From a virus (Duplodnaviria; Heunggongvirae; Uroviricota; Caudoviricetes), in IMG/VR virus record IMGVR_UViG_2534681762_000013: DNA of 40,188 nt; one strand, written 5' to 3'. The translations under genes and the position numbers were made by a program. This document shows positions 1 to 34,446 of the stretch, one piece after another. The notes beneath the pieces were generated by a model. The model made no database searches, was not told where the DNA came from, and saw only the letters and a list, made by a program, of their open reading frames with translations. Each line of letters opens with the position of its first letter. Position 1 is the stretch's first letter.

Positions 1-483
1 ATGACGAAGAAAAAAGCACATAAACCTGGTTCAGCGACCATCGCGCTTAACAAGCGCGCCCGTCACGAATACTTTATCGAAGAAGAGTTCGAAGCGGGAC
101 TTGCCCTGCAAGGCTGGGAGGTTAAATCCCTGCGCGCAGGAAAAGCCAATATCAGCGACAGCTACGTCCTTCTGCGTGACGGAGAGGCATTTCTGTTTGG
201 CGCTAACATCACGCCAATGGCCGTGGCCTCCACGCATGTGGTGTGCGATCCTACCCGTACCCGCAAGTTACTTCTCAACCAACGCGAACTGGACTCATTG
301 TACGGTCGCGTCAATCGAGAAGGCTATACCGTAGTGGCGCTCTCCCTGTACTGGAAAAATGCCTGGTGCAAAGTGAAAATCGGCGTCGCCAAAGGTAAAA
401 AACAGCACGATAAACGTTCAGATATCAAAGAACGCGAATGGCAGGTGGATAAAGCACGTATCATGAAAAACGCCCACCGTTAA
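1..483 (+). CDS. smpB: SsrA-binding protein SmpB
   Basis: 160-aa ORF at the window start with the characteristic SmpB sequence ([28 protein letters not shown]...), directly upstream of the tmRNA gene as in enterobacteria. Confidence 0.96.
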
Positions 484-697
484 ACCTGCACTCCAATTAT
501 TGACCAGTTCCTCACCGCGCCTCCCTCTCCGGCGGCGCGAATGAACATCTTATTGGCTATCACATCCGACACAAATGTTGCCATCCCATTGCTTAATCGA
601 ATAAAAATCAGGCTACATGGGTGCTAAATCTTTAACGATAACGCCATTGAGGCTGGTCATGGCGCTCATAAATCTGGTATACTTACCTTTACACATT

Positions 698-1060
698 GGG
701 GCTGATTCTGGATTCGACGGGATTTGCGAAACCCAAGGTGCATGCCGAGGGGCGGTTGGCCTCGTAAAAAGCCGCAAAAAATAGTCGCAAACGACGAAAA
801 CTACGCTTTAGCAGCTTAATAACCTGCTTAGAGCCCTCTCTCCCTAGCCTCCGCTCTTAGGACGGGGATCAAGAGAGGTCAAACCCAAAAGAGATCGCGT
901 GGAAGCCCTGCCTGGGGTTGAAGCGTTAAAACTTAATCAGGCTAGTTTGTTAGTGGCGTGTCCGTCCGCAGCTGGCAAGCGAATGTAAAGACTGACTAAG
1001 CATGTAGTACCGAGGATGTAGGAATTTCGGACGCGGGTTCAACTCCCGCCAGCTCCACCA
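698..1060 (+). ncRNA. ssrA: tmRNA (transfer-messenger RNA)
   Basis: Starts GGGGCTGATTCTGGATTCGACGGG, contains the tag reading frame GCAAACGACGAAAACTACGCTTTAGCAGCTTAA (ANDENYALAA), and ends with the tRNA-like GGTTCAACTCCCGCCAGCTCCACCA; 363 nt. Confidence 0.95.
1016..1053. repeat. attL core: 38-bp direct repeat formed by the 3' end of ssrA
   Basis: ATGTAGGAATTTCGGACGCGGGTTCAACTCCCGCCAGC is repeated identically at 34447..34484; the two copies bracket the prophage. Confidence 0.75.
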
Positions 1061-1070
1061 AATAAAACAA

Positions 1071-1103
1071 GGGGTTACGTGAAAACGTAGCCCCTTTTTC
1101 TTT
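1071..1103 (+). terminator. ssrA intrinsic terminator-like hairpin
   Basis: GGGGTTACG / CGTAGCCCC stem followed by a T-run, immediately after the CCA end of tmRNA. Confidence 0.5.
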
Positions 1104-1177
1104 GGTAGTGGCGGCAAAATGGCGACAGAGTGTCGGACTGGCGGCAACAAAAAACCCGCCTTTAAAGCGGGTTCTGT

Positions 1178-1396
1178 TCAGAAACTCATGTGGCCTTGAC
1201 CACCTTTTCCAGGATGTGGCGGCGCAGAAGAAATTAGATTCGGTTTTATAATGTGCCGTACAAACGTTTCATGAGTAACGAACGTACAGCCACAATTTAT
1301 ATTTTGGCACTGGTTGTAACGTTCTTTTGTCGTAGCTGATACCTGAAAACTGCTTCTGGTATGTGCTGCATGACCGCACTCTGGACAGTTCATCAT
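1178..1396 (-). CDS. ogr: Ogr/B-type zinc-finger late transcription activator
   Basis: 72 aa from the internal Met (MMNCPECGHAAH...TTKERYNQCQNINCGCTF...), a C4 zinc-finger pattern like P2 Ogr; RBS before this Met; the ORF-track 88-aa version likely over-extends the N-terminus. Confidence 0.8.
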   Translation of the reverse strand: MMNCPECGHAAHTRSSFQVSATTKERYNQCQNINCGCTFVTHETFVRHIIKPNLISSAPPHPGKGGQGHMSF

Positions 1397-1464
1397 CGCT
1401 GTTATCCCACCACTCTTGCCGTAGTCGCAATAATGATACATCATTATTCAGTATTGAGAACCGA

Positions 1465-2565
1465 TTATTCAATTTCAAGATCACCAATCTTTACTTCAAG
1501 CTCCATGCTGGTCGTAAATCCATTATCCGGGCTGACAGAATGCGTCAGGGTGGTAATGGTCCACTCTGCATCATCGATCGGCTGCTTGAACCCTGTAACC
1601 TTCACCGGCATTTCCGTATAGAGATCAGCCCGCCCCTCAGCGAGCTGCAGGGAAAATGTAGCAACCCCACGCTGCAGACGTTCCCACTGCATTTTTGCTG
1701 CGCGCTCAGCATTGTTCCGGTTGGCGTAGGTACGATTAAGAACTAGCACGTTTTCATCCGTTCCCACCAGATAATCGCCCTGTTTTGCTTCCGGCTCTTT
1801 GGGTGTGGTGGTTTTCTTTCGACGACGCTTAACACTGGTTGTCTCTTTTTTCCTGGGTTCACGCGTATGCAACCAGCTGGCAATAACACCGGTATAGGCA
1901 CCACGATCAGCAAGGGTGAACCGATGACCGTCACCGGCTTTGCGAGTGATGGTGATAACCGGCAGCGGCTTGCCGCTCGCCGTTCTTCCCTGTCCCTGCC
2001 GGATAAACAGCAGATTCCCGTCCTTAACGGAAGCAATCGCCCCATACTGTCTCGCCAGTTTCATCAGAAAACTTGCATCGCTTTCATTGGTCTGGTCCAG
2101 ATGATCCAGCGCCTTATCCGTCAGGTCTTTACCCAGCGCCATTTTGAGGTTATGCCGGGCGGCTATTTCCTTTACCACCTCCCCCACCGTTGTCTGATGC
2201 CATGATTTTTCGCGCCGTGTATTGAGGGTTTCACGGAAATCTGCGCTACGCGCCCGGATGGTCAGCCGGTCAGGGGCACCGCTGTGTTCAATTTCATCCA
2301 CAGTAAAAGCCCCTTTAGGGAAAAGCGGCTGGCCTTTCCAGCCCAGCGCCAGCTGAATCACTGCCCCACGTCGCGGCAGGGCGATCAGCCCGTCGGCGTC
2401 GTCCAGCTCCAGATCAAGCTGGTCCGCTTCAAAGCCCCGGTTATCCGTCAGCGTCAGACTCATCAGGCGGGTATCCAGCACGGTCGTCACGTCCTTACCT
2501 TCAATGACGATACTGAAAGCCGGGCTTTTGCTGTTCAGATTCAGAAGATCAGAATTAACGTTCAC
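1465..2565 (-). CDS. D: P2 gpD-like tail protein (late gene D)
   Basis: 366-aa ORF placed between ogr and U as in P2; GTG start; overlaps the U stop. Confidence 0.8.
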   Translation of the reverse strand: MNVNSDLLNLNSKSPAFSIVIEGKDVTTVLDTRLMSLTLTDNRGFEADQLDLELDDADGLIALPRRGAVIQLALGWKGQPLFPKGAFTVDEIEHSGAPDRLTIRARSADFRETLNTRREKSWHQTTVGEVVKEIAARHNLKMALGKDLTDKALDHLDQTNESDASFLMKLARQYGAIASVKDGNLLFIRQGQGRTASGKPLPVITITRKAGDGHRFTLADRGAYTGVIASWLHTREPRKKETTSVKRRRKKTTTPKEPEAKQGDYLVGTDENVLVLNRTYANRNNAERAAKMQWERLQRGVATFSLQLAEGRADLYTEMPVKVTGFKQPIDDAEWTITTLTHSVSPDNGFTTSMELEVKIGDLEIE

Positions 2566-3047
2566 TGCAGCAATCCTCCTACCGTGTTCTTAATCCCCCC
2601 AATCGCAGAGGCAGCAGAGTCCTGCAGGTTGCTGAGCTGGTCACTCAGGCTCCCGAACATGTCAGACAGTGATTCATCAACCCGTTTGAGGGTGATCGTA
2701 AACTCAATGCGCCTGGGCATACCGCTGGCAAAAAACTCCGTCTTTGTCTGGCTCAGACTTTCAATAACAAACATGCCGTAAATGGTTCCGCTGCCTTCAA
2801 TCAAAGGCCAGGCTTTGCCCTGCTCTGCCATCAACTCCAGCGCCAGCAATGACAACCTGCCTCCGGTCACTTCCGGCAGCAGAACCCCGGACAGTGTCAG
2901 TGAATCATTATCCGGGCCAAGAAACTGCGTTGACGGGCGGCGATTCACCCGGCTGTTGGCGGCATGTCGCCAGCTGCGCTGATACTGCAGCTCCTGATAA
3001 GGGACAGTGCGCAGCATAAATACATATAAACCCAGCACCATCATCAT
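2562..3047 (-). CDS. U: P2 gpU-like tail protein
   Basis: 161-aa ORF starting MMMVLGLYVFMLRTVPYQELQYQRSW, matching remembered P2 gpU; start overlaps the T stop (ATGA). Confidence 0.85.
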   Translation of the reverse strand: MMMVLGLYVFMLRTVPYQELQYQRSWRHAANSRVNRRPSTQFLGPDNDSLTLSGVLLPEVTGGRLSLLALELMAEQGKAWPLIEGSGTIYGMFVIESLSQTKTEFFASGMPRRIEFTITLKRVDESLSDMFGSLSDQLSNLQDSAASAIGGIKNTVGGLLQ

Positions 3048-6000
3048 GATTCATACCCCCCCTGATCGCTGAAATTGCTGCGCGCTTTTGCCCTGGCCCT
3101 GCGTTCCCGCTCGTCAAGCTGACGTGCCACTTCACGGGCAATATCCTGCGCACTCTGTCCCGGCTGCGCGACGATATGAATGGGCGCATTTATCTCATAA
3201 CGAATAACTGACGGCGGGCTGTCAGCCTTCACTGGCTGCGTCTGGTATGCACTCGCAGGCAGACTGAACGGATGAAGCGGAACCGCTTCTGCAGGTGTCG
3301 CAGCAACCCCCATAACGCCTGCAACGACAGAGGCAAGCGCAGCAGTACGCCGCCTGCTGGTGACATTTGCCGGTCCGTTCACAATTTCAGGGCCATTTTC
3401 TCCAACAATGCCAAACTGCCCGCGTGGAATGATCCCGCCCGTGTCGTACATCCCTGCGTAAGCCGGGAACCCGCCTGGCGGCAGCACCACTTTGCCGTCA
3501 CTGTTCACCGTGGCGGATTGCTGTTGCGTGACCTGTGCAGGCAGTTTCGCCTTTGCCGCCTCCTTACTGACAATACCGAGCTTTTCCAGTAGCCATGACA
3601 CACCGGATTTAAGAGACTCCAGCGGGTGCATCACCATAGTCAGACCTTCCGCCAGCGCCTCACCAAACCGGCGCCCCATTGCAGCTGCGCTGTTCAGTTC
3701 TTCGGAAGTGGATTTAACCGGCGAAAGTAAATCGCTGAACCAGCCCCACAAGGCCTGCACCCTGTCACCAATCCACTGGAACATGGGCCTGAGCGGCTCA
3801 AAGGCGGCGCTGATTGGCGCTGCAGCGGCTTTGAACCCTTCCACCACGCCCCCCAGAAATGCACTGATGGGCTGCCAGTATTTCCACACAACCAGCGCCA
3901 CACCAGCCAGCGCAGCCACAACCAGCCCTATCGGACTGAGCAGCGCACCCAGCAGGCCGGAAATACCAAACAGCGCGCCGCGAAGTAATGCCAGCGGACC
4001 AGAAACAAGAAAACGCAATACGCCACCGGCAGCTGTCAGCCCACCACGCAACGCCGCCAGCGGGTTCATCACCATACCGATAACATTACGGATGCCTGAC
4101 ATACCGACACGGAACACGGCAAGCGGAGCACCTGCCACCGTTTTCAGTGCATTACCCGCTATTCCGGCTGAGCGACGCAGGGAATTAAGCGGGGCACTCA
4201 GTAACCCTACACTGCCACCGGATGACGCCATACCCCGACGCAACAGGGAAAGTGGCGCACCTGCCAGCCATGACAGGGCACCGCCAGTACGTGTTACCGC
4301 TGCAGCAACGGAAGGTAATGTTTTTACACCCAGCACAGACAGGCCAAACCGAATCACCGCAATCGGCCCCAGCACAGCAGCCACTGCCACGGCAAGTGTA
4401 CCCAGCCCGACAGTGACAGCCGCCGTAGCCGCCGCCACTTTCATCAGCGTGCCAGCCAGCACGGGATTCTGCTCCACCCAGCGACGCAGCGCCCCGGTCA
4501 CGCCCTTAACCATGCCCATAATATCCATCAGCGGCTGGCGCAACGTTTCCCCCAGACTGCTGAAAGCGTTCTGCGCGCCAGTCTTAACCAGCAACCACTG
4601 CGCAGACAATGAATCCTTGTTAATGTCGGATTCTTTCTGCATCGAGCCATTCGCACCACTGCCTGATGTGAGTTTCAGCTGACGCTGCAGCTCCGGCAGG
4701 TTGTTAGCCAGCTTTGCCGCATCATCGCCAAACTCTTTACCAAAAATCATTGTCATGGCTGACAGGCGTTTATCCTGCGGCAGATTGTTGACCTTCTCCA
4801 GAACCCGCTGAATGGTGCCCATGGCATCGGTGGTCATCTGCTTTTCAATCTCCGCAGGATTGAGTTTCAGCAGATTCATACCTTCAAAGAAGCGCTTACT
4901 TTGCATGGTGGCAATGGACAGTTCACGCACCATGGCATTAGAGGCGCTGGAGGCAATTTCCGGGGCAGCCCCAAGAGAAAGGAATGTTGAACCCAGCGCA
5001 GCAGCTTTTCGGAAGTCAAGGCGGTCAGCCACGCCCCCCATACGCTGCAGGACGTTGATAATGTCCCCGCCCTTTGACATGGCGTTATCGTCCAGGTAGT
5101 TCAGCGCATCGCCCAGTTGTTCAATATTGCGCGTCGGCACTTTATAGAGCTGCGCGATTTTCCCCAATCCTTCCGCCAGCTCATCGGCGGGCAGCTCAAA
5201 GGCCGTTGCAGCTTTTGCCGCCGTGGATGCAAAGGCCAGCAGGTCACGTTTCTGGTCCTCAAAGAGATCGTCCTGGCTGGTCACGCCCATACGCGCGCCC
5301 CCTTCAACCAGCGCGGCATAATCTATAGCGCCATTCTCCATCGGCAGCTGCTCACTGGCAGCCTTAATGGCATCCTGCATGTCATAAAACTGTTTTGTAC
5401 GGTTGCCGTTATCGTCCCGCAACCCGTTTACCTGCTTTGCCACGCCTTTCATGGCATCTTCCATGCTGGCGTAGCTTTTCACTGCAGCCAAAACCGGCGC
5501 ACCCATTGCCAGCCCGGCAGCTGTAGTGGTGGCTCCGGCTCCGGCTATGCGATCCCGAACCTCAAGACGGCGCGAATACTGATCACGAACCGCATTCATT
5601 CTCGCCTGCTGTTCACCCAGGTGTTTCAGAGATTTTTGCTGTCGCTCCAGTGCCAGTCGGGTTTCATCGGCGTTCTGCCGTAGCTCACGCTGTGCGCTGC
5701 TCAGTTTCTTTGTATCAAGCCCTGCCTCATTCAGCGCAAGGCGCTGACGCTGCACTGACTGACGCAGCCCGTTATATTTTCCCTGTAAATCGGTGACGCG
5801 ATTTTTAGCCTGCTCAAGCAGCCTGGCCTGAGCTGCCGTCGGGCGGTTGGTCGCAGTAAACTGCGTGGCGAGTTTTGCCGCTTCTTCGCGGGCGGCTTTA
5901 AGGCTGTTACCTGTGACTGCTAGCTGCGCGCTGGCCTTACGGAAGCCATCAATTCTGCCCGCCTGAGAATCTAACTCTTTCAGCCGGGCGCGGCTTTGCT

Positions 6001-7118: not shown

Positions 7119-8291
7119 TTATGCACTGACACGGCTGGCAAAATCGACCAGGTAGCGATCGGTGATGCGCTGGCGCAGCATCAGATTTTCAAGCGGCAGC
7201 ACAGGCGTGTAGTCGTAGTCGATGGTGAGCTTCCCGGCTTTCAGAGAGTCTTTATCGTTCACTGACTCATCCAGCCAGCAGTCCGCCCCGATGAGGTATC
7301 CCTGATTTACCAGGCTGCGTAATTTGGCGCGAATACCTTCGATAATGTCGCGGGCCAGTGACGGATTCAGTGGCTTATCCACCGCCCACATATGCCCCTC
7401 TGCAATTGTGTCAGCCAGCACCTGCGCCGTACGGGTGTAGTTCTCAAACGCAAACAATGGATCGTCACTGAGGCAGCGGGAACCCCAGAAGCGGAAGCCG
7501 TCTTTGCAGATCAGCGTGGTGACGTCATTCTGGTTCAGCAGTCCCGCGTCTGTTGCCGGGTCCTGCAGATCCCAGAACACATCAGCGGAAAGACCGGTGA
7601 CGCCATTCACACCCACGTTGGACAGGGTTTTGTGCCATCCGGTCTGTTCGTCGATTTTGGCGCGCAGACCGAGCGCACGTGCGGAGGCGTAAGCCGTCGC
7701 ATCGGCTTTAAGAACGGTGTCAAAGTTGATGAAATCAGGCCAGATCAGCATCCCTTCTCGCTGGCTGAAATTGTCCCGGTAAGCAATGGCTTCCTCCACC
7801 GTCTTGCAGCCATAGGCAGACAGGTAGGCAAACCCGCGCAGGCTCTGCGCAATACTCATCAGCTCAGTGGCTACCGCCTGCGTGTCATGCCCCGGCACAC
7901 CGAGAATGCGCGGCTTAACTTTCAGCTGCGACTGCGCAGAAAGCAGCGCTTTCATCCCCGTTTTTTTACCGTCGGACGTGACGCCACCGATAATATTGGA
8001 GGTGGTTTCCGCTTCGGTTTCGCCCTGCGCCACGCGCACAACAACCGTCACGGGTTTTGATTGGTCGGCAATCGCATCAAGCGAACGGGCCAGCGTGCCG
8101 GACTCGCCTGCTTTACCGCTGGCCTCCAGCACATCCGTCAGCAGAACCGGCTTATTGAGAGGAAACACGGACGCATCAGCATCATCGCCGGTGCAGACCA
8201 TGCCCACAATAGCGGTGCTCACCGTGGTGATAGATCGGGTGCCCTCGTTGACTTCAACAACGCGCACCCCGTGGTGGTAATCCTGAGCCAT
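7119..8291 (-). CDS. FI: contractile tail sheath protein (gpFI-like)
   Basis: 390 aa ([35 protein letters not shown]...), closely matching remembered P2 FI along its length. Confidence 0.9.
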
Positions 8292-8374
8292 AGCGGCGAA
8301 CCTCCTGATTGGAATAGGCTTCGCCCTATGTTGTATTGATTACGTCACGCAGACAGCTGCGCGGCGTTGTCCTG

Positions 8375-8932
8375 TTAATCACACAATGTCGCAGGATATT
8401 TGCGGTATAACGTCGAGATCCCCACATCAAACATTAAAGCAACCCGCTGCCGTGTTTCACCTGCAGCAAGTAACCTGCCAGCCTGTGCCCATTGCTCTGG
8501 CGTCAGTTTTGGTCTTCGCCCTCCAATCCTGCCTTTAGCTCTTGCGGCTTCCAGTCCCGCACGGGTTCGTTCCACTATCAACTCGCGTTCCATCTCCGCC
8601 AGTGCCCCCATAACGTGAAAGAAAAACCGCCCCATTGGTGTACTGGTGTCTATGCTGTCAGTCAGACTACGGAAATTAACTCCGCGCTGCCGGAGTTCTT
8701 CTATCAGGGTAACAAGGTGTCGCATGCTTCTTCCCAGCCTGTCGAGCTTCCATACAACCAGCGTGTCTCCCTCTGATAACGTCCTGAGCAACCTTTTTAG
8801 CCCTGGTCTGTCTGCTGTTTTTCCGCTCATTTTGTCTTCAAAAATTAGCTCACATCCTGAGCGTTCCAGTGCATCACGTTGCAAAGCAGTGTTCTGGTCA
8901 TTTGTTGACACCCTCACATAGCCTATTTGCAT
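8375..8932 (-). CDS. serine DNA invertase (Gin/Hin/Cin/Pin family)
   Basis: 185 aa from MQIGYVRVSTNDQ (catalytic Ser motif) with C-terminal HTH; adjacent to a segment flanked by hix/gix-like inverted sites. Confidence 0.88.
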   Translation of the reverse strand: MQIGYVRVSTNDQNTALQRDALERSGCELIFEDKMSGKTADRPGLKRLLRTLSEGDTLVVWKLDRLGRSMRHLVTLIEELRQRGVNFRSLTDSIDTSTPMGRFFFHVMGALAEMERELIVERTRAGLEAARAKGRIGGRRPKLTPEQWAQAGRLLAAGETRQRVALMFDVGISTLYRKYPATLCD

Positions 8933-9017
8933 GAAAAATAACCTCTTAAAAGATAAACAGCATGCCATGATTTTCAGATGCTGGAATCATTTGCTACGTA
9001 ACTGATTCAATACTGGC

Positions 9018-9043
9018 TTTGGCTAAATGTTGGTTTGGGAGAA
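9018..9043. other. invertase crossover site A (hix/gix-like 26-bp site)
   Basis: Its reverse complement TTCTCCCAAACCAACATTTAGCCAAA shares the 14-bp half-site TTCTCCCAAACCAA with site B at 11512..11537 in inverted orientation; resembles hixL (TTCTTGAAAACCAAGGTTTTTGATAA). Confidence 0.55.
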
Positions 9044-9403
9044 GCGGCAAAACGAAATGTGGGAACAGGGGAAAATCAGATACCGGACATGGCTTCATTT
9101 AGTGGGGTGAGGGATTATTACGGAAAACAACTTTTGCCAGGAGGGTTGATACTTCAGTGGCTGACGATTCCATCAAGTGCAGCAGCCAAAGCTGTAACAC
9201 TGAATAATGGTAATTATCAGCTGTCAGGCTATAAATGGCCCCAGTCATTTGGTGTCCTGTTTGCTGTGTTTGCTACAAAAGTTTCTGGCTCGACTAACGA
9301 AGCATATGCAATCTCAGTTAATCGTCACTCTACCGATGTAATTGTCATCTGGAATGCCCGTAAGGCTGATGATGTCCACATTTTAGGAATTGGGGAATTA
9401 TGA
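9035..9403 (+). CDS. alternative tail-fibre C-terminal (variable) segment, currently in the silent orientation
   Basis: The open frame begins inside crossover site A with no independent start context; it would fuse in frame to the constant part of H after inversion, as in Mu G / P1 C segments. Confidence 0.55.
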
Positions 9404-9819
9404 CAATGAAATGGTCCCCATCTGTTCAGGGATTTTTCTCTGAAAATAACAGCGATATTCCCGATGATGCTTTCGATATTGAAGATGCTCTTTATTATGA
9501 ACTTATGAATGGTCAGAGTACGGGGAAAATTATTATCAATAACCCGGATAACTACCCTGTACTTACTGAATATCCAGCGAAGACACAGGAACAGGAAATA
9601 GCTGAAGCGGAGGGAATGAAAAGTATACTTATTGAACAGGCCAACGAATACATGAACAGTAAGCAATGGCCTGGTAAAGCCGCTATTGGTCGTCTGAAAG
9701 GTGAGGAACTGGCGCAATATAATTTGTGGCTGGATTACCTGGACGCACTGGAACTGGTCGATACTTCCGGTGCGCCAGATATTGAATGGCCTACGCCTCC
9801 GGCAGTTCAGGCCAGATGA
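9400..9819 (+). CDS. tail fibre assembly protein (Tfa), paired with the alternative fibre segment
   Basis: 139 aa ending ...[15 protein letters not shown], the conserved Tfa C-terminal motif; start overlaps the upstream stop (ATGA). Confidence 0.75.
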
Positions 9820-10002
9820 CGTCCGGCGCGGTGCTGGTATCTGATTCCATCACCGCGTCGATATTACCAACATCATATTCAGTCATTTCCGGTTCCGGTG
9901 GTGCTATAAACTCTCCGTCAGAATAGAACCAACCGACGCCTGCATCTGGTGATGCTGTCAACTTACTGATTTAGTGTATGATGGTGTTTTTGAGGTGCTC
10001 CA

Positions 10003-10278
10003 GTGGCTTCTGTTTCTATCAGCTGTCCCTCCTGTTCAGCTACTGACGGGGTGGTGCGTAACGGCAAAAGCACCGCCGGACATCAGCGCTATCTCTGCTC
10101 TCACTGCCGTAAAACATGGCAACTGCAGTTCACTTACACCGCTTCTCAACCCGGTACGCACCAGAAAATCATTGATATGGCCATGAATGGCGTTGGATGC
10201 CGGGCAACTGCCCGCATTATGGGCGTTGGCCTCAACACGATTTTACGTCACTTAAAAAACTCAGGCCGCAGTCGGTAA
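10003..10278 (+). CDS. insA: IS1 InsA
   Basis: 91 aa [39 protein letters not shown]..., recognised IS1 InsA; GTG start. Confidence 0.93.
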
Positions 10279-10700
10279 CCTCGCGCATACAGCCGGGCAG
10301 TGACGTCATCGTCTGCGCGGAAATGGACGAACAGTGGGGCTATGTCGGGGCTAAATCGCGCCAGCGCTGGCTGTTTTACGCGTATGACAGTCTCCGGAAG
10401 ACGGTTGTTGCGCACGTATTCGGTGAACGCACTATGGCGACGCTGGGGCGTCTTATGAGCCTGCTGTCACCCTTTGACGTGGTGATATGGATGACGGATG
10501 GCTGGCCGCTGTATGAATCCCGCCTGAAGGGAAAGCTGCACGTAATCAGCAAGCGATATACGCAGCGAATTGAGCGGCATAACCTGAATCTGAGGCAGCA
10601 CCTGGCACGGCTGGGACGGAAGTCGCTGTCGTTCTCAAAATCGGTGGAGCTGCATGACAAAGTCATCGGGCATTATCTGAACATAAAACACTATCAATAA
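10197..10700 (+). CDS. insB: IS1 InsB frame (transposase made as InsAB' fusion by frameshift)
   Basis: 167-aa frame ...[37 protein letters not shown]...; the A6C frameshift motif TTAAAAAAC lies at 10252..10260. Confidence 0.9.
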
Positions 10701-10830
10701 GTTGGAGTCATTACCCCTGCATCTATATGATCAATATTTATAATTTCGCAGTTAGAGAATAAATCACCCTCTCCATCCCAGATAATAATATTTTTCACCA
10801 CGCCATGTTCAATCAGAGCAAAATTACTCA

Positions 10831-12573
10831 TCAGGCATACTCCTCAACAATAACTATTCCCGGGGCACCGTCACCTCCCGATTGAGCCTCACTTCCGGCA
10901 GGTGCGCAGGCTCCGCCTCCGCCAGCACCAAAGCCCTCAGCTTTACCACCACCACGTCCGCTGAATGATGAAGAACTTGCACCACCTATACCGCCTGAAC
11001 CTAGTGGTGTATCCCCCCCGGTACCACCTGCAACAGCTTTAACAGAGATAACCATTGCTCCTGGTGTTTTTGCACTACAGCGAAATGTTCTTAGTACAGT
11101 ACCGGACGATGTCGGACTGGCACCCCATGAAATACCCTGAATATATGATGTGTTTGCAGATGCTCCCCCCGCGCCACCGCCTGTACCACCCGGTGCAGTT
11201 ATCAGGGAACCGAAATAAGTTGTGCCACCTTCACTACCTGAATTTCTTCCGGCTCCCCCCCCTTTACCTGCAGCACCGATAATAACGTTGACTTCGAAAT
11301 CATTATCAACCTCGAAAAATGCTTCAATAAATGCACCGCTCAATCCAGCTCCGGCTGTTGCCTGCTGATTTTCTGTTGTTTCAGGAACCCCACCGCCGCC
11401 GCCACCGCCACCAGAGGCAATGACCCTTATCTTTTTTGTCCCTGGTGTTGGGATATATTTTCCAGAGCTTTTAAAAATATTCGTGTTTAACAAACGACCA
11501 GAGAATCTGGCTTCTCCCAAACCAAGGTATTGTAGAAGGGCTGAAACACTTTTCCCGCTGAGGTTAGTCAAAGTGGCATCGAGGGGCTGTTTCCCCGCCA
11601 GCGCGTTCATCACTGTTGTCGCAAAGTTAGGATCATTCCCCAGCGCAGCTGCCAGTTCATTCAGTGTGTCCAGCGCCTCCGGCGATGAACCAACCAGCCC
11701 GGCAATAGCTGCCTTCACAAATGCTGTAGTGGCAATCTGCGTATTGTTCACAGTCTGCGCCGCAGTCGGAGCCGTTGGCGTTCCGGTCAGGGCTGGGCTT
11801 GCCAGTGGTGCTTTCAGTGCCAGCGCATTGTTAATGGTGGTACTGAAATTCGGGTCATTATTGATAGCTGCCGCAATTTCTTTCAGCGTATCCAGCGTTG
11901 CCGGTGCGCCACCTATCAGGGCAAGAATAGCGGCCTGTACAAAGGCTGTACTGGCAATCAGGGTGCTGTTGTTTCCTGCCGGTGGCGTTGGCGTTTTAGG
12001 CATGCCTGTCAGAGTCGGACTGTCTTTTGGTGCATATTGCGAATGAGGATCAACCGCAGCAAGATGCTTTGCCATCAGGTCATCCACATACACCTTAAGT
12101 TCCAGCACCTTATCATCCACATATTTGCGGGTTGCCAGAACCACAGCGGGGTCAATTTTCAGGGTGATGTTATCCGTGCTGCTGGTAATCAGTACCATTC
12201 GCACGGTCTGCGTGCGTCCGCTGCCCTCCGCCAGCTTCGGCTTGTAGCTCTCCGGGCAGTTTCCCACAGCAATTAGCGCACCTGTTTCATCAAACAGGCC
12301 GACTTCACGAATCCACCACCCGCCCTCATTTTCCGGGATCACCTGCTCAGCAATAATCTGGCTGCTGTTCTGTGGGTCGATATACAGCATATTCAGCGCT
12401 GCGCGGCGTTCCTCAGCCACTAACGCGGTCTGTTGCGCGTTGGGTGTGGGCAGCATACCACCACCGCTGCCCACCGCCATATGGGTAATTTTTAGTGGGA
12501 CACCGAGCGCGGCGGCGCTTACCAGTTTCGCCGCGCCGATATCCGTCAGCAGGGTGTAAAATTTTGCGCTCAT
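10831..12573 (-). CDS. H: tail fibre protein (gpH-like) with constant N-terminal part and a Gly-rich variable C-terminal part
   Basis: 580 aa; N-terminus MSAKFYTLLTDIGAAKL...MAVGSGGG matches remembered P2 gpH; crossover site B lies inside the gene at ...LQYLGLGEA. Confidence 0.85.
   Translation of the reverse strand: MSAKFYTLLTDIGAAKLVSAAALGVPLKITHMAVGSGGGMLPTPNAQQTALVAEERRAALNMLYIDPQNSSQIIAEQVIPENEGGWWIREVGLFDETGALIAVGNCPESYKPKLAEGSGRTQTVRMVLITSSTDNITLKIDPAVVLATRKYVDDKVLELKVYVDDLMAKHLAAVDPHSQYAPKDSPTLTGMPKTPTPPAGNNSTLIASTAFVQAAILALIGGAPATLDTLKEIAAAINNDPNFSTTINNALALKAPLASPALTGTPTAPTAAQTVNNTQIATTAFVKAAIAGLVGSSPEALDTLNELAAALGNDPNFATTVMNALAGKQPLDATLTNLSGKSVSALLQYLGLGEARFSGRLLNTNIFKSSGKYIPTPGTKKIRVIASGGGGGGGGVPETTENQQATAGAGLSGAFIEAFFEVDNDFEVNVIIGAAGKGGGAGRNSGSEGGTTYFGSLITAPGGTGGGAGGASANTSYIQGISWGASPTSSGTVLRTFRCSAKTPGAMVISVKAVAGGTGGDTPLGSGGIGGASSSSFSGRGGGKAEGFGAGGGGACAPAGSEAQSGGDGAPGIVIVEEYA
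11512..11537. other. invertase crossover site B (hix/gix-like) inside H
   Basis: TTCTCCCAAACCAAGGTATTGTAGAA; inverted partner of site A. Confidence 0.55.
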
Positions 12574-13175
12574 GGGTTCACTCTCATCGTGTCAATAACA
12601 TGGACCGCCCCGCCCTCATAAGCGGTGCCGCCGGAAATAATGGTTTCGTTGATATACGGGTAGATCGTGATTTCTTCGCCGGTGTAGGTGGCTGCGCCCA
12701 CAAAATACGGGCCACCTGTCTGCAGGTTGATGGACATACCAACCAGGTGACGGCTGCACGGTTTGGCGTCACCGATCAGGCGCTCCAGCTCCAGATAGGT
12801 TTCTTCTGTTATGCCCTGGTCCTGCACGCCAATATCCAGACGGAACGTCCCTGGTATTTCGCCAGTCTGCCACCACTCAATGATGCGGATCAGAAAGCCG
12901 AACGGCTCCACCACGCGCCGCACGGCGCTGGTTGTCCCCTTGTGCTGATGGATATAAAAAGCGTCCTGCACAACGCGGCGCTTGACGCTTTCTGTCCAGC
13001 TCTCATCCCAGCGGTCAACAGAAAACGCCCAGGCCAGATAAGGCAGGAATCTGACCGGGCAGATTGACGGATTCCACAAATCACGCAGCGATACCTGCAG
13101 ATCGGAAATCCCGCTGCAGGTCTGCGCCAGTCGGCGCTCAAGCGGCGACGAACCCGGCGGCAACAGGCTATTCAT
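12570..13175 (-). CDS. I: baseplate protein gpI-like
   Basis: 201 aa from the Met with a GGGGG RBS (MNSLLPPGSSPLERRLAQ...); sits between J and H. Confidence 0.8.
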   Translation of the reverse strand: MNSLLPPGSSPLERRLAQTCSGISDLQVSLRDLWNPSICPVRFLPYLAWAFSVDRWDESWTESVKRRVVQDAFYIHQHKGTTSAVRRVVEPFGFLIRIIEWWQTGEIPGTFRLDIGVQDQGITEETYLELERLIGDAKPCSRHLVGMSINLQTGGPYFVGAATYTGEEITIYPYINETIISGGTAYEGGAVHVIDTMRVNP

Positions 13176-15015: not shown

Positions 15016-15105
15016 TTGAAATGATTCGTACGAACCAGCATAATTGTGTTATAGCTGGTACAAACAGTTGATAAGTTCGACTCAACCAAAACAAGGAGTA
15101 AGTTG

Positions 15106-16359
15106 ATGTATAAAATACAAAGCATCGCTATCAATGGTTTTTGGCAAAGATTAAATGCTCTTTGCTCTTTTAATGATGATGTAAACATCATCATTGGAAG
15201 GAATGGAACCGGCAAAACAACTTTTATGAATATTTTGCATTCAATTTTATCAATTGACCTTGATGGCATTAACAACAATGATTTCAATAGTGCCGAAATA
15301 AAACTAAAGGACAAAAAGAAAACTAAGACAATAAAAATTAAGAAAATCGAGAGTGATACATCACCGTTCTCTAAAATAGAGTATCAACTTTCATCAAAAA
15401 AACATACCATCCGACTATTCAACGCCGATGACAGAAGAATCTCCCTCAGTTATAGACGCAGAGCACAAGAAGAGACTGAGGAGTTAAGAGCAGAATTAGC
15501 AAAACTGGTTTCACTCTCATCTTTATCCGTCTATAGACTAAGGAATAGTGACGACTTTGAGGTTAGAGACAAATACGGCTCTCGCTTTATCAACCCTGTC
15601 GATTATAAACTATCAGAATTAATGCAGGAATTAACAAAATATCAACTTGAATTATCTCAACGAGCGAGAGATATTGCATTAGAACTTCAAAAAGAAGTTT
15701 TAGCATCTATTCTATATAGTAAAGATGATATTGATGATAAGGCGTACAACATTCAATTTAACAAGGAGGAAGAAAAACAAAACCTTTTAAGTGCGTACAC
15801 ACAACTAAACGCTATTGATATGAATGTCCGTCGGAAAATAAATTTCCATGTTGACACTATTGATCACACCATTGCAGAATTAAAACAAAATAAAAAAGAT
15901 GGTTTTGACATCCGCTCAATTGAAGCGCTAAGAAAGACACAAAAAATAATTAGAATGTCTTTAAAATCTAAAGAAAAAACATCTTTAGTTTTCGCTCCCA
16001 TTGAACAATTTTTAAGTATTTTAAAAGAATTTATTACTGATAAGGAATTTGACTTTCAAGGCGGAATACTTTCCATAAAGAATACTTACGGACCAATAAT
16101 TCAGGAAAATTTATCTTCAGGTGAGAAGCAATTACTTATTTTATTCATAGAAACCCTATTACAAAGAGAAAAACAATATATTTTCCTAACAGATGAGCCT
16201 GAACTCTCCCTACATATTCAATGGCAAAGAAACATTATCCCAGCAATCAAAAAACTCAATCCCAATGCACAAGTAATAGCTGCCACACATTCTCCAGAAG
16301 TAGCTTCAAAATACAGGAGTGCAATTTTTAACATGGAGAAACTTGTCAATGTCCAATAA
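15106..16359 (+). CDS. ABC/OLD-family ATPase (AriA-like), first gene of a two-gene cargo operon
   Basis: 417 aa from the ATG with an AAGGAG RBS 7 nt upstream; Walker A GRNGTGKTT, ABC signature-like LSSGEKQ, Walker B IFLTDEPE, His-switch ATHS; strongly AT-rich codon usage unlike flanking phage genes. Confidence 0.8.
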   Translation: MYKIQSIAINGFWQRLNALCSFNDDVNIIIGRNGTGKTTFMNILHSILSIDLDGINNNDFNSAEIKLKDKKKTKTIKIKKIESDTSPFSKIEYQLSSKKHTIRLFNADDRRISLSYRRRAQEETEELRAELAKLVSLSSLSVYRLRNSDDFEVRDKYGSRFINPVDYKLSELMQELTKYQLELSQRARDIALELQKEVLASILYSKDDIDDKAYNIQFNKEEEKQNLLSAYTQLNAIDMNVRRKINFHVDTIDHTIAELKQNKKDGFDIRSIEALRKTQKIIRMSLKSKEKTSLVFAPIEQFLSILKEFITDKEFDFQGGILSIKNTYGPIIQENLSSGEKQLLILFIETLLQREKQYIFLTDEPELSLHIQWQRNIIPAIKKLNPNAQVIAATHSPEVASKYRSAIFNMEKLVNVQ

Positions 16360-17206
16360 TGAGATTCGAACAGATAACTTTAATTGGTCTGACGAGGCGG
16401 AAAATGTTATCAGCATGTTTTATGATGCTGATATCATGGTATATGTTGAAGGTGAGGATGATATTGGATTTTGGGAAATAGTTTTCAAAAAAAATGGTCG
16501 ACTAAGTGTTGAAGTGCAAGAAGTTGGAGGGTGTGAAGCATTAGAACCTTATATTGAGCGAATCACATCAGGACAAATAAACGCAATTGTTGCCCGCGAT
16601 GCAGATCTGAATCATTTTTCATCCAACTTAGTAAATCATACAAACATCATCTATACAAAAGGTTACTCAATTGAAAATACTATAGTCGATGAGAAAGTCC
16701 TATCCCGTGTGTTAAAACACATGGGAAGATACAGTGCCAAAGAAATCCAAGGAATAAATATAAACTCCTGGCTATTAGAGTTTTATAACAATATTGAAGA
16801 CCTAATTGCCTTAGATATTTACAATCATTTAAATCAGCGTGGCTATTCCGTAGTAGGTGATTCATGCGATAGATTTATGCAATCAAAAAACTCTTACAAA
16901 ACATGTCAAGATAAGATAAATGCTTATATTCAAACCCTTCCTGATGATTTCAGAAATGTAGGGTTAGCAGAAAAAAACAACATTCAATTTCCTGCCAACA
17001 CTTGCATAACGCATTGGATAAAGGGGCACTTTCTATTCTCAGCATCATTAAGATTCATAACCAATTACTTAGCTAAAAATGAGAGAAAAACTGCAATATC
17101 AAAAGATAGTTTTTATTCAAATATGCTAACGGCTTTTGAATTATTCTTTACTGAAGAACATGCGGATTATGATTACTACAATCAAAAAATATCACTAATT
17201 TCATAG
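16349..17206 (+). CDS. DUF4435/TOPRIM-like protein (AriB-like), second gene of the cargo operon
   Basis: 285 aa from MSNNEIR; start overlaps the gene-1 stop by 11 nt with a GGAG RBS; acidic motifs VYVEGEDD and ARDAD consistent with a TOPRIM-type metal site; AT-rich. Confidence 0.72.
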   Translation: MSNNEIRTDNFNWSDEAENVISMFYDADIMVYVEGEDDIGFWEIVFKKNGRLSVEVQEVGGCEALEPYIERITSGQINAIVARDADLNHFSSNLVNHTNIIYTKGYSIENTIVDEKVLSRVLKHMGRYSAKEIQGININSWLLEFYNNIEDLIALDIYNHLNQRGYSVVGDSCDRFMQSKNSYKTCQDKINAYIQTLPDDFRNVGLAEKNNIQFPANTCITHWIKGHFLFSASLRFITNYLAKNERKTAISKDSFYSNMLTAFELFFTEEHADYDYYNQKISLIS

Positions 17207-26029: not shown

Positions 26030-26062
26030 TAATCACCTACTCATCAACAACAATATTCAAAC

Positions 26063-26095
26063 AGGCCGCTAATCATGCGGCCTTAATTTATTTAC
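26063..26095. terminator. bidirectional hairpin terminator between Q and the convergent small-gene operon
   Basis: AGGCCGC-TAATCAT-GCGGCCT stem-loop with AT/T-rich flanks. Confidence 0.45.
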
Positions 26096-26361
26096 CAATT
26101 TCGACCAGGAGCCTTTAACCATGTAGAACAAGAATAATTTAATGAGGCCCAAGATTTTTGTAAACGAGCAACAAAGATCACATCGTTACTATCAACATTT
26201 GCTTTAAGTCCATCACGCAATTGCGCTGCAGAAAGCGTGGTATCGATTAACCAAAAGGATTCTAAATGTTTGCAGTAGTCAAACTTTTTGAGATAGGTAA
26301 AAACATCATCATAGTTCTTGCCTGGAGCTTTCAAGTCATACGTTACACAATAGACCGCCAT
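26092..26361 (-). CDS. hypothetical 89-aa protein (weak VapD/Cas2-like N-terminal pattern)
   Basis: AT-rich ORF with a GGAG RBS, 3 nt downstream of the zinc-ribbon gene; the N-terminus MAVYCVTYDLK... loosely recalls the first strand of VapD/Cas2-fold proteins. Confidence 0.5.
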   Translation of the reverse strand: MAVYCVTYDLKAPGKNYDDVFTYLKKFDYCKHLESFWLIDTTLSAAQLRDGLKANVDSNDVIFVARLQKSWASLNYSCSTWLKAPGRNW

Positions 26362-26364
26362 CTT

Positions 26365-26547
26365 TTATGCTCCGCACTTTTTATCATTTGGAGAACATCT
26401 TAATCGACGACATCTGCGACAATATGATTGTGGAATCAAACGTTCCCCTTCCATCATTCTAAAACCAAATACCTCTTCAATTTTGTTCAGATCACCACTT
26501 GCAGCGACCCCACAACAAGGACAATAAGCTTTAACTTGATACGGCAT
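26365..26547 (-). CDS. hypothetical 60-aa C4 zinc-ribbon protein
   Basis: CPCC...CRRC cysteine pairs; start taken at the Met with a GGAG RBS; AT-rich; forms an operon with the 89-aa gene. Confidence 0.45.
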   Translation of the reverse strand: MPYQVKAYCPCCGVAASGDLNKIEEVFGFRMMEGERLIPQSYCRRCRRLRCSPNDKKCGA

Positions 26548-26647
26548 GTTTATCTCCATTTCACATGTTTTGAGTAGAGTAATCTATCCGTCCAAGCAAA
26601 AATGAGACATAGCTCTTGAAAGCTGTCCCAAACCAACCAGCGCGCGC

Positions 26648-26666
26648 TCGTATCCCCGCCACGCCT
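26648..26666. other. candidate cos (cohesive end) site
   Basis: The reverse complement of TCCCCGCCACGCC at 26652..26664 is GGCGTGGCGGGGA, matching the start of the 186/P2 cohesive-end sequence as remembered; position after Q fits P2 organisation. Confidence 0.35.
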
Positions 26667-26868
26667 GCCCGCTTTGTGTAGTGGTTTTCATGCACCTGCA
26701 TGACATAAGCAAAAGCCCGCCAGTTCTGGCGGGCCTGAGCAAAAACGATCCTCAAACGATCATGCGATTTCATGCGGCATAGACATGCACAACAGCGCTA
26801 ACGCCTCGCGTGGCTCGTTGTTCAACCTTGCGGACGGTAAAAACCAGTTTTATCGTCCGCAACGTTCG

Positions 26869-27102
26869 CTAATGTAACCAGCTGTCGTCCTCCCAGACCT
26901 GCTGCATTATTTCCATCACTCGCTTTTTATCTTCATCCAGTTTTAACCCGCTCAGCTCTACGCCGTTGGCGCTGCCCTTACGGATACGAATTGCTGTTTT
27001 GGGATACAGAGGGCGCAAATTACGGTAAAGCTCGGATTCAAGGGCGTCCAGTGTAGCCTGGCTAATCTTCTGCTCTTTATCGATCATTATTTCAATGCGC
27101 AT
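26869..27102 (-). CDS. DinI-family protein
   Basis: 77 aa MRIEIMIDKEQKISQATLDALESELYRNL...EIMQQVWEDDSW, the DinI fold pattern; downstream gene of the LexA-box operon. Confidence 0.8.
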   Translation of the reverse strand: MRIEIMIDKEQKISQATLDALESELYRNLRPLYPKTAIRIRKGSANGVELSGLKLDEDKKRVMEIMQQVWEDDSWLH

Positions 27103-27113
27103 ACAGATTCCCC

Positions 27114-27302
27114 TTAACTGGTTACATCCATTGACCGGCAGTATTCATGGCTGCGGATTTTCGCCATCAGCTCGTCGGTCAGTTCGGACACCCACTGGAT
27201 AGCCAGCCGCTTTTCTTCGTCGCTACACTCACTAGCCGCTACAAGCTTGATAAAAAAATCAATGCGCTGGAGCTTCAACGACTCCAAAAGATAATCCTGC
27301 AT
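27114..27302 (-). CDS. small SOS-operon protein, candidate Tum-like antirepressor
   Basis: 62 aa from the Met with a GGAGGG RBS; located between the LexA box and the DinI-like gene, mirroring the SOS-induced tum locus of phage 186; the ORF-track 98-aa version would span the promoter. Confidence 0.45.
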   Translation of the reverse strand: MQDYLLESLKLQRIDFFIKLVAASECSDEEKRLAIQWVSELTDELMAKIRSHEYCRSMDVTS

Positions 27303-27351
27303 TTTCCCTCCTATCACCACCTCGGATACACAACAACTGTATATATATCCA

Positions 27352-27367
27352 CTGTTTATAATTACAG
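27352..27367. promoter_or_regulatory. LexA (SOS) box overlapping the promoter of the Tum-like/DinI-like operon
   Basis: CTGTTTATAATTACAG fits CTGT-N8-ACAG with an AT-rich spacer; an adjacent imperfect copy lies at 27337..27354; about 50 nt upstream of the start codon at 27302. Confidence 0.6.
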
Positions 27368-27463
27368 TATAGTAGGAATTTGCGAATGTAAACCGTTTTT
27401 TATCTGTCAATTAGATCGCTCTGATGCGGATCAATAAGAGCAAGAATTGTTAAAGCTGCGGCA

Positions 27464-27760
27464 TCAGTACCACTGACGCCATTTGTCATCTTCCTGCAGA
27501 CGGTGGTTGCGGTAAAAAATACGCAGCCCGGCACCTGACGGAATACTGCCGCCGCGCAGAAGCAGGTCAATCTCTGACTCGCTACCATCGAACCCTCTGG
27601 AACTCAGTTCTGCCTCAAGCTGCAGGCGCTGCTGATCCGAAATAGTCTGTTTATATGCTTTTTTCCGCTTCGGTTTTACCAGCCTTAACCTGGCTGTCAG
27701 CTCCCGCCGTTCCTTCTGGCCCATGTTGTGGAGATATTCCTGCAGCTCCCTCTCATCCAT
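27464..27760 (-). CDS. hypothetical protein downstream of A
   Basis: 98-aa ORF whose 5' end overlaps the A stop; basic central region; no recognisable motif. Confidence 0.35.
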
Positions 27761-32595: not shown

Positions 32596-32676
32596 TGTTT
32601 TATACGATTCAAGAGTTGATACGAAAAGATACTACGATCCAATATTTGATACGTCAATAGGATTAAAAAATGATAC
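32596..32676. promoter_or_regulatory. lysis-lysogeny switch region with repeated GATAC-containing operator-like motifs
   Basis: TTGATACG at 32616..32623 and 32646..32653 (30 bp apart), plus GATAC variants at 32628 and 32672, in the 119-bp interval between divergent apl and cI. Confidence 0.35.
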
Positions 32677-33302
32677 AGGTAAAGACAGGCGAGAACACCG
32701 GGGGTAGAGAGGCCATCCATAGGCTAATGGCAGCCTACGATTTCAAATCAAGACAGCAATTGTGCGACCATCTTGGCGCATCTAAAAGCACCATGGCAAA
32801 CAGATACTTAAGAGATAGTTTCCCTGCAGAATGGGTAATTCAGTGCGCTCTTGAGACAGGCGTTTCTTTACTCTGGCTTACCACAGGGCAAGGCGAGCCG
32901 GGTTCAAATATTGACATGCAAAAAGATATCAATTTCGTGAACTCCGGCAAAGTTAAACACCTTTCTGACCTTGTTTCTCCCGAAATTGACAAAGTGACAC
33001 TTTCTAGCGGCTCTTTGGTGGATACAGGTAAAGCAATCATTGACAGCAGCTTGCTTCCTTCCAATTCCAGTAACTTACTCTTAGTAAATACCGGTGGTGA
33101 TTCATACCTAGTGGATCGCAGCCAAACACCACCAGTAAATGGGGTGTGGTTGGTCGATATTGATGGAATAAAAAGTATTGTGAAGTTAACCCGTATCCCC
33201 GGAAACAGATTGGTAGTTCATCAAGATGAATCATCTTTTGAGTGCAGCCTGGATGATATCGAGGTTGTAGGCCACGTCTTAAAAGTTATTAAGAGCCTTT
33301 GA
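32670..33302 (+). CDS. cI: 186 CI-like immunity repressor
   Basis: 210 aa; N-terminal HTH region ...MANRYLRDSFPAEWVIQCALETGVSLLWLTTGQG resembles 186 CI; immediately upstream of int. Confidence 0.78.
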   Translation: MIQVKTGENTGGREAIHRLMAAYDFKSRQQLCDHLGASKSTMANRYLRDSFPAEWVIQCALETGVSLLWLTTGQGEPGSNIDMQKDINFVNSGKVKHLSDLVSPEIDKVTLSSGSLVDTGKAIIDSSLLPSNSSNLLLVNTGGDSYLVDRSQTPPVNGVWLVDIDGIKSIVKLTRIPGNRLVVHQDESSFECSLDDIEVVGHVLKVIKSL

Positions 33303-33303
33303 T

Positions 33304-34329
33304 ATGACCATCAGAAAACAGCCAAACGGGAAATGGTTGTGTGAGTGCTACCCTAGCGGGCGCGATGGCAAGCGCGTGCGCAAGCAATTTGCGACGAAAG
33401 GCGAGGCCATAGCATTCGAAAACTTCACAATGGATGAAGTGAACAAAAAGCCATGGCTAGGCGAAAAGGATGATCGGCGCCAATTGTCAGAAGTAATTAA
33501 GCAGTGGCATTCACTTTACGGACAGACTCTTGCTGACCCCAAGCGCCTGATGGCAAAACTTAACATTATTTGTAATGGCCTGGGTGATCCCATTGCCTCG
33601 GAGCTGACTGCCGGTGACTTTACAAAATACCGTGAAGCACGCCTAAAAGGTGAAGTCAAAAATGAAGATGGCTTGCCTATGTCGCCAGTTAAGCCCCGCA
33701 CGGTAAACCTTGAACAACGCAACCTATCATCAGTTTTTGGCACGCTGAAAAAGCTGGGCCACTGGTCAGCCCCCAACCCACTCGCCGGGCTTCCAACATT
33801 TAAAATCGCAGAGGGGGAGCTGGCGTTCCTGGCGCCGGAAGAAATTAAACGCCTGCTGGATGCCTGCGCTGATTCAGAAAACCCCAGCCTGCTCATGATT
33901 GCAAAAATCTGCTTAGCTACCGGCGCCCGCTGGAGTGAAGCCGAAAACCTGCAGGGCCATCAGTTATCTAAATACCGAATCACCTACACCAAAACAAAGG
34001 GCAAGAAAAACCGAACGGTTCCTATATCTCAGGCGCTGTATGACGAGTTACCAAAGAACCGAGGGAAGTTATTCACGCCATGCAGAAAAGCCTTTGAGCG
34101 TGCAGTCAAGCGGGCAAGCATTGACTTGCCAGAGGGCCAATGCACCCACGTTCTGCGCCATACTTTCGCCAGTCATTTTATGATGAACGGCGGAAATATA
34201 CTGGTACTGCGCGATATTCTGGGCCACGCCGATATTAAAATGACAATGATTTACGCCCACTTCGCACCCGACCACCTGGAAGATGCAGTGACAAAAAACC
34301 CGCTTCACAATCTCAACTGGAACCGTTAA
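33304..34329 (+). CDS. int: tyrosine integrase (P2/186 Int family)
   Basis: 341 aa with the C-terminal catalytic region HVLRHTFASHFMMNGGNILVLRDILGHADIKMTMIYAHF (R...HxxR...Y); adjacent to attR. Confidence 0.9.
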   Translation: MTIRKQPNGKWLCECYPSGRDGKRVRKQFATKGEAIAFENFTMDEVNKKPWLGEKDDRRQLSEVIKQWHSLYGQTLADPKRLMAKLNIICNGLGDPIASELTAGDFTKYREARLKGEVKNEDGLPMSPVKPRTVNLEQRNLSSVFGTLKKLGHWSAPNPLAGLPTFKIAEGELAFLAPEEIKRLLDACADSENPSLLMIAKICLATGARWSEAENLQGHQLSKYRITYTKTKGKKNRTVPISQALYDELPKNRGKLFTPCRKAFERAVKRASIDLPEGQCTHVLRHTFASHFMMNGGNILVLRDILGHADIKMTMIYAHFAPDHLEDAVTKNPLHNLNWNR

Positions 34330-34446
34330 TTTATGGCGGCACTTTGGCGGCACAGACTTAAAATCACATAAAACCCGACAAATACAAAAAACAATAACGT
34401 GATGATTTTAAAAGTAAATGTATGTTTTTATTAGGCTAACAATGGT

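Follow-up and report, generated by a model that had tools for sequence, protein, structure and literature searches.

The region around the tail-fibre gene H of the 40,188-nt window (the whole stretch of DNA analysed, from IMG/VR virus record IMGVR_UViG_2534681762_000013) very probably holds a Din-family inversion switch, of the Gin/Cin/Pin/Hin type, for the fibre tip of a Fels-2/P2-like prophage located at ssrA. An invertase gene stands beside a segment bounded by two inverted crossover sites, and this segment holds alternative C-termini of H that are promoterless and oppositely oriented, the constant part of H lying outside it (Table 1). A first-pass annotation of the window had described a host-range switch of the Mu G / P1 C type embedded in a P2-like tail cluster, a description supported by every feature of an inversion switch that can be tested from sequence. 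We infer that the copy in the window still flips and that the two states would differ in host range. Two fibre tips are thus probably available to the ssrA prophage, and the one currently expressed has probably been crippled by an insertion sequence, IS1. The result matters little beyond correct annotation of such loci, and it bears on the predicted host range or inducibility of the phage as well as on assembly and variant-calling artefacts at the locus.

Invertase, crossover sites and putative enhancer

The call of an intact serine invertase at 8375..8932 agrees with the domains of the encoded protein, which matches the Pfam families Resolvase (PF00239, expectation value E = 8e-53) and HTH_7 (PF02796, E = 5e-12); no specific NCBIfam model was found for any protein of the locus. 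Residues 1-182 match the Mu Gin structure 3uj3 with E = 7e-88, whereas resolvases are matched at only ~1e-31 (gamma-delta resolvase, E = 3e-31). Over its full length, the invertase is 73.5% identical to Mu Gin, 77.3% to P1 Cin and 81.5% to PinE of e14, and it shares 84-85% identity with the invertases of the ATCC 8739 and Ec1117 prophages. The active-site Ser9 (Gin numbering), situated in a YVRVSTNDQ motif, aligns with that of Gin, Cin and PinE, and Arg42 is kept. It has been shown that six Hin residues, K47, K/R48 and K/R51 of helix B together with Q151, R154 and L155 of the DNA-binding domain, contact Fis and the enhancer and are uniquely conserved in Fis/enhancer-dependent invertases (McLean et al., PMC3798978). 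Their counterparts in the window's protein are K46, R47, R50, Q150, R153 and L154 (Gin numbering being that of Hin minus 1).

Two inverted 26-bp hix-like sites with a common half-site, which had been proposed as the boundaries of the segment, are indeed present. They contain a perfect 16-nt inverted repeat (9030-9045 and 11510-11525), of which ~0.002 pairs would be expected by chance in 4.3 kb, and both consist of 12-bp half-sites flanking an identical 2-bp core AA, with TTCTCCCAAACC as the inner half-site. The 14-mer TTCTCCCAAACCAA occurs in exactly two copies in the window, in opposite orientation. Comparison with known sites, which the first-pass annotation had put forward as a check, places both within the family: they agree with the Din consensus at 14/15 and 13/15 specified positions, and the established hix, gix, cix and pix sites agree with it at 9-14/15. 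The consensus was read as TTCNNNNAAACN-NA-NGTTTNNNNGAA, as this reading fits the 12-bp half-sites tabulated in PMC3241671, the plain-text table of which prints 11+2+11 characters. The pixL and pixR sequences of e14 are tabulated in the same source (PMC3241671), and their inner half-site and core are identical to the TTCTCCCAAACC-AA of the window. Symmetry between half-sites amounts to 9/12 for the site in H and 6/12 for the invertase-proximal one, with 4-9/12 in established sites.

Inverted repeats have a generic ability to recombine, and this is all that can be said for RecA-dependent or illegitimate recombination between short repeats beside an unrelated recombinase, for instance a resolvase for something else. 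The common repeat is just 16 nt long, too short for efficient RecA recombination, and the repeats show the 12-2-12 anatomy and the sequence of pix/cix sites. The recombinase is 73-82% identical to proven invertases and matches resolvases only at E = 1e-31, and the end points of an inversion in ATCC 8739 (see below) fall on the sites. Because of the site anatomy and the identity of the recombinase, an origin by RecA or by chance can for practical purposes be regarded as excluded.

The e14-like inner half-site and core also suit a second alternative, in which the main targets of the invertase are invertible segments elsewhere, acted on in trans (an e14-type P segment sharing this inner half-site, for example), and the local segment is a passenger. 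Din invertases cross-complement one another (Gin, Cin, Pin and Hin, as well as the Fin protein of Fels-2 on hix), which counts in favour of such a role. However, the local sites stand in canonical cis geometry, 98 bp from the gene, no second segment lies within the 40-kb window, and activity in trans would add to the local role rather than replace the switch as the main explanation. A mere passenger segment is therefore very improbable.

Inversion by enzymes of this family is assisted by an enhancer in cis with two Fis sites, which usually lies near the start of the invertase gene, and the P1 annotation (NC_005856) places the Cin enhancer at nt 19-90 of cin. The corresponding stretch of the window's gene (8843-8914) is 74-83% identical to gin, cin and pin, compared with 67-74% for the remaining gene; against P1 alone, the values are 82% and 67%. 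Two G-N13-C motifs are found at nt 22-36 and 71-85 of the gene, 49 bp apart, although a simple scan for this Fis motif returns many matches and is insufficient alone to define an enhancer.

Elsewhere in the prophage, a near-copy of the inner half-site followed by the core, CTGTCCCAAACC AA, is seen at 26623-26648 (+) and is probably due to chance. The near-match proper, CTGTCCCAAACCAA at 26623-26636, was rejected as a third half-site, as its outer half is unrelated and GC-rich and 0.43 such matches are expected. If the stretch were to serve as a quasi-site, 15-17 kb of prophage would invert.

Constant and alternative parts of the tail fibre

One crossover site had been placed inside H, at the junction between constant and variable sequence, and there it encodes ...LGLGEA in the fibre protein. 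The constant part of H is 99.95-100% identical to that of L3Cip3 and LS45, and the glycine-rich cassette now joined to it is 99.4% identical to the Ec1117 segment. A tblastn search of a phage collection with the glycine-rich tip gave no match; the low-complexity filter is the likely cause, so this is no evidence of absence. The silent tip at the other end of the segment matches the C-terminal part of PHROG 2557 (E = 8e-33) and, weakly, Pfam Gp53-like_C. It had been recognized as a plus-strand frame (9035..9403) without start context of its own and followed by an assembly gene, and both points hold: the 139-aa tail-fibre assembly (Tfa) protein encoded next matches Caudo_TAP (E = 3e-23) and PHROG 188 (E = 5e-51).

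When the segment 9030-11525 is flipped in silico, H stays in frame and changes from 580 aa to 473 aa; the annotations of ATCC 8739 and Ec1117 include an H protein of the latter length. The junction ...LQYLGLGEA is encoded by the site and common to both orientations, and in either cassette the stop codon of the tip overlaps the start of its own assembly gene as ATGA (translational coupling). The predicted junctions of the flipped form are CTTCTACAATACCTTGGTTTGGGAGAAGCGGCAAAACGAAATG on the H side (minus strand) and GGCTTTGGCTAAATGTTGGTTTGGGAGAAGCCAGATTCTCTGGTCG on the invertase side (plus strand). The statement that two Tfa-type genes converge and overlap at their ends needs amendment: the overlap of their 3' ends at 9791-9819 is real, but the minus-strand gene is broken by an IS1 element that the first-pass annotation overlooked.

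Table 1. Features of the inversion region in the 40,188-nt window.
Feature	Position	Strand	Description
Din-family serine DNA invertase	8375..8932	-	185 aa, intact; ATG at 8932 preceded by AAGAGG
Putative Fis-dependent recombinational enhancer	8843..8914	-	nt 19-90 of the invertase gene; homologous to the annotated Cin enhancer
Invertase-proximal 26-bp crossover site	9018..9043	-	TTCTCCCAAACC AA CATTTAGCCAAA (reverse complement of 9018-9043)
Silent alternative H C-terminus, gp53-like tip	9035..9403	+	~120 aa, no start codon context
Tail-fibre assembly gene (Tfa) of the silent cassette	9400..9819	+	139 aa, intact; ATGA overlap onto the cassette stop
87-aa Tfa-type gene of the expressed cassette, 3' part	9791..9947	-	cut off by IS1
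IS1	9948..10715	+	768 bp, complete; insA 10003-10278, insB' frame 10197-10700
87-aa Tfa-type gene of the expressed cassette, 5' part	10725..10831	-	~36 codons; ATG overlaps the H stop (ATGA)
Currently expressed variable H C-terminus, glycine-rich tip	10831..11525	-	Pfam Gly_rich_2, E = 4e-8, residues 374-577
Crossover site within H, constant/variable junction	11512..11537	+	TTCTCCCAAACC AA GGTATTGTAGAA; encodes ...LGLGEA
Constant N-terminal part of tail-fibre gene H	11526..12573	-	~349 aa; Phage_tail_fib, E = 3e-62

Inversion in related prophages

Evidence for inversion comes from close relatives. Two assemblies of ATCC 8739 (NZ_CP033020 and NC_010468) have flanks that are 99.97% identical, and 1.87 kb is inverted exactly between the sites homologous to those of the window; in one of them the annotated H has 1542 nt and precedes tfaE, and in the other it has 1422 nt and precedes the gene for a 139-aa Tfa. 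The cassette pair of the window (99% identical) is oppositely oriented in 89-3156 and Ec1117, between flanks that are 99.4-99.9% identical to each other. L3Cip3 and LS45 share the flanks, the invertase and both sites of the window at 99.9-100%, their invertase-proximal site being identical to that of the window, and their segments are oppositely oriented. The full-length junction of the flipped H occurs in 22 complete Escherichia coli genomes and the current junction in 16. Coexistence of both orientations within cultures has been demonstrated, by sequencing and polymerase chain reaction, for e14 and for two P2-like prophages of enteropathogenic E. coli (EPEC) E2348/69 (Goldberg et al., 2014; PMC4272514).

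A search of the complete E. coli genomes with 8300-12600 (megablast) returned no record covering at least 80% of this stretch, its match list having been inflated by IS1 to 78,396 places. Among loci that agree with the window in both orientation and cassette pair, the closest is that of E. coli 89-3156 (NZ_CP027366, 4202-5266), where H is frameshifted and the Tfa annotation truncated; such switch regions appear to decay independently in different strains.

Insertion of IS1 into an assembly gene

The IS1 element carries the domains InsA and DDE_Tnp_IS1 (E = 6e-78), is flanked by a 9-bp target duplication, CCTGCATCT, at 9939-9947 and 10716-10724, and makes up 31% of the invertible segment. Deleting it in silico together with one copy of the duplication restores an 87-aa open reading frame (ORF), of which an intact version of 264 nt is annotated in 89-3156 and Ec1117. 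Aligned over 97% of its length, the 87-aa protein is 32% identical to a protein of phage Goslar annotated as tail fibre assembly protein (E = 6e-13). At present, the 139-aa Tfa is intact and the 87-aa gene is split after ~36 codons; before the insertion, to judge from the Ec1117 gene, each tip had an intact Tfa. The junction between IS1 and tfa has no exact match in the representative genomes of GTDB. IS1 has left the sites, the invertase gene and the stretch homologous to the enhancer intact, and the segment, IS1 included, measures 2.5 kb, which is less than the segments of Mu G and P1 C, so nothing visible prevents its inversion.

In the present orientation, the glycine-rich fibre would be made without its cognate 87-aa assembly protein, and poorly assembled fibres would be the outcome. 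The switch may now alternate between a defective and a functional fibre, because the flipped state has an intact pair of tip and Tfa and the present state lacks the cognate Tfa.

Proposed mechanism and possible present activity of the switch

By analogy with the known members of the family, invertase dimers would bind the two inverted 26-bp sites, assisted by host Fis at the putative enhancer in the 5' end of the invertase gene, and flipping would depend on both Fis and this enhancer. Both sites would then be cut at the AA core, and the strands rotated and religated, leaving the 2.5-kb segment inverted. Because the late operon V-W-J-I-H is expected to read into the segment, the cassette facing the constant part of H would determine both the receptor-binding C-terminus and the assembly protein translated next. 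With the segment oriented as in the window, these would be the glycine-rich tip (H of 580 aa) and the 87-aa gene broken by IS1; in the other, the gp53-like tip (H of 473 aa) and the intact 139-aa Tfa.

Several points weigh against a switch that operates in this very prophage. The single assembled window holds one orientation, and the inversion of its own copy is read from relatives. The exact combination of flanks, segment and IS1 was found neither in 5,426 complete E. coli genomes nor among the GTDB representatives. No promoter rises above background upstream of the invertase, a promoter and terminator scan of 8200-12700 having performed no better than on shuffled sequences, and the outer half of the invertase-proximal site is weakly symmetric (6/12). 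As for the enhancer, the bases of 8843-8914 also encode the catalytic motif, which makes their conservation ambiguous and in itself no proof, and the spacing of the G-N13-C motifs is 49 bp, compared with 48 bp for Hin.

The lack of a convincing promoter and the proximal outer half-site, matching at only 6 of 12 positions, can also be taken as signs of a frozen switch, structurally complete and no longer flipping, with its arrangement fixed by an invertase that is silent in the lysogen, by decay of the prophage or by a poor proximal site. The IS1 element has already inactivated one gene inside the segment, and the frameshifted H of the related 89-3156 locus fits the same picture. On the other hand, no damage is seen in the invertase ORF, in either site or in the stretch homologous to the enhancer, and the remaining prophage looks complete, with capsid, terminase, tail, replication, CI and integrase genes. 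Weak expression is normal for Din invertases. In L3Cip3 and LS45, this same invertase and the same two sites accompany segments of opposite orientation, and even the defective prophage e14 still flips (PMC4272514). Nothing in the sequence demands a frozen relic, and we consider this explanation unlikely, though less improbable than the alternatives discussed above; a switch that still flips is preferred.

Mosaic structure of the segment

The segment and its surroundings have different closest relatives. Outside the sites, the window is 99.9-100% identical to L3Cip3 and LS45; inside them, it is 99.4% identical to Ec1117, the flanks of which are only 76-82% identical to those of the window. At both ends, the change of homology partner falls within the 16-bp cores (9030-9045 and 11510-11525), which suggests that the segment was exchanged as a whole, by recombination at these sites. 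A possible history, which we put forward tentatively and with some doubt, is that the two-cassette segment was transplanted between unrelated P2-like backbones via the crossover sites, and that IS1 then changed a two-state host-range switch into one that alternates between good and defective fibres. The breakpoints inside the crossover cores illustrate the movement of fibre-tip cassettes between phage backbones, and should the exchange have been mediated by the invertase, between prophages resident in one cell, the sites would be portable points of cassette exchange, with a role beyond inversion. Movement of cassettes between phages is said to have been proposed for the Din family already in the 1990s, by Sandmeier and colleagues.

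Comparison with known inversion systems

The layout of the locus is not unusual, being the standard one of Fels-2 (Felsduovirus) and Escherichia phage 500465-1 (Wadgaonvirus). Both have the order J, I, H, Tfa, convergent Tfa, H' fragment, DNA invertase, FI, FII; in Fels-2, the genes read ogr D U T E FII FI invertase H'-fragment G-like G-like H I J, and in 500465-1 the gene at the place of the invertase is annotated as DNA invertase. Fels-2 is likewise a P2-like phage integrating at ssrA, and its tail genes are 84-90% identical in DNA to those of the window. The cassettes of these phages are different, however, their invertase is diverged (~76% DNA identity, 500465-1/ATCC 8739 type), and the copy in the window carries IS1. 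The IS1 hit is new here, as is the site-precise mosaicism, and the remainder is of an already known kind.

The P segment of e14 (E. coli K-12) with its invertase PinE (81.5% identical) shares the TTCTCCCAAACC-AA inner half and core, as well as the geometry of a site, ~100 bp and an invertase reading away, with two convergent cassettes of tip and Tfa. It differs in its outer half-sites, CGTTTATGAAAA and GGTTTTCGAGAG in pix instead of the window's CATTTAGCCAAA and GGTATTGTAGAA, and in the contents of its cassettes, save for ~200 bp of the Tfa 3' end at 85%; moreover, its host element is a lambdoid remnant rather than a P2-like phage, and e14 is free of IS1. With the G segment and Gin of Mu and the C segment and Cin of P1, the locus has in common a serine invertase (73.5% and 77% identical to Gin and Cin, respectively), 26-bp sites and a constant Sc with alternative Sv/Sv' and U/U'. 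As in Mu, the 5' end of the invertase gene faces the segment, whereas P1 has the 3' end of cin towards cixL. Mu's gix sites have a GA core instead of the window's AA, and both phages have larger segments (3 and 4.2 kb) and unrelated tips. The P2-like loci of EPEC E2348/69, likened here by their description, also swap tail-fibre C-termini by means of an invertase and inverted repeats (PMC4272514), one of them being a shufflon with three sites, compared with two in the window.

Prophage context and neighbouring genes

The switch belongs to a complete-looking P2-family prophage. Its tail module follows the P2-like (Peduoviridae) order V W J I H ... FI FII E T U D, with PHROG matches for sheath, tube, tape measure, I, J, W and V, and its FI-FII region is 84-90% identical in DNA to Fels-2 and RE2010. 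In P2 itself, the order is J I H G fun(Z) FI, and in the window the cassettes stand where P2 has G and the invertase where it has fun(Z), as anticipated by the earlier proposal that the switch replaces the G/Z-fun region. A CI repressor of the 186 type and an integrase are encoded at 32670-34329.

The transfer-messenger RNA (tmRNA) gene ssrA, with the tag ANDENYALAA, adjoins the prophage at 698-1060 (+), and the integrase (33304-34400) is situated at the far prophage end, beside ypjA, where the flank is 99.8% identical to E. coli. The attachment locus is the same as that of Fels-2/SopEPhi-type phages and of the CP4-57 region of K-12.

A two-gene insert of ~33% guanine-cytosine (GC) content is found between the tail-completion genes and V, at 15103-17206 (+). 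It encodes an AAA_15 ATPase of 418 aa, matching PADLOC AriA (E = 2e-36), and a DUF4435 protein of 295 aa, matching AriB (E = 9e-23). Because of these matches, the insert is, on homology grounds, a PARIS-type anti-phage defence system in a known accessory hotspot of P2. The ATCC 8739 prophage has a different ATPase, of the Sll1717 family, at the same place. Finally, the portal gene and replication gene A are separated by a stretch of ~44% GC at 26030-27700 (-), which is the old/tin position in P2; it contains Cys-rich ORFs of 89 aa and 64 aa without a Pfam match, two 98-aa ORFs with no assigned function, and a DinI-like protein at 26869-27102 (E = 9e-24).

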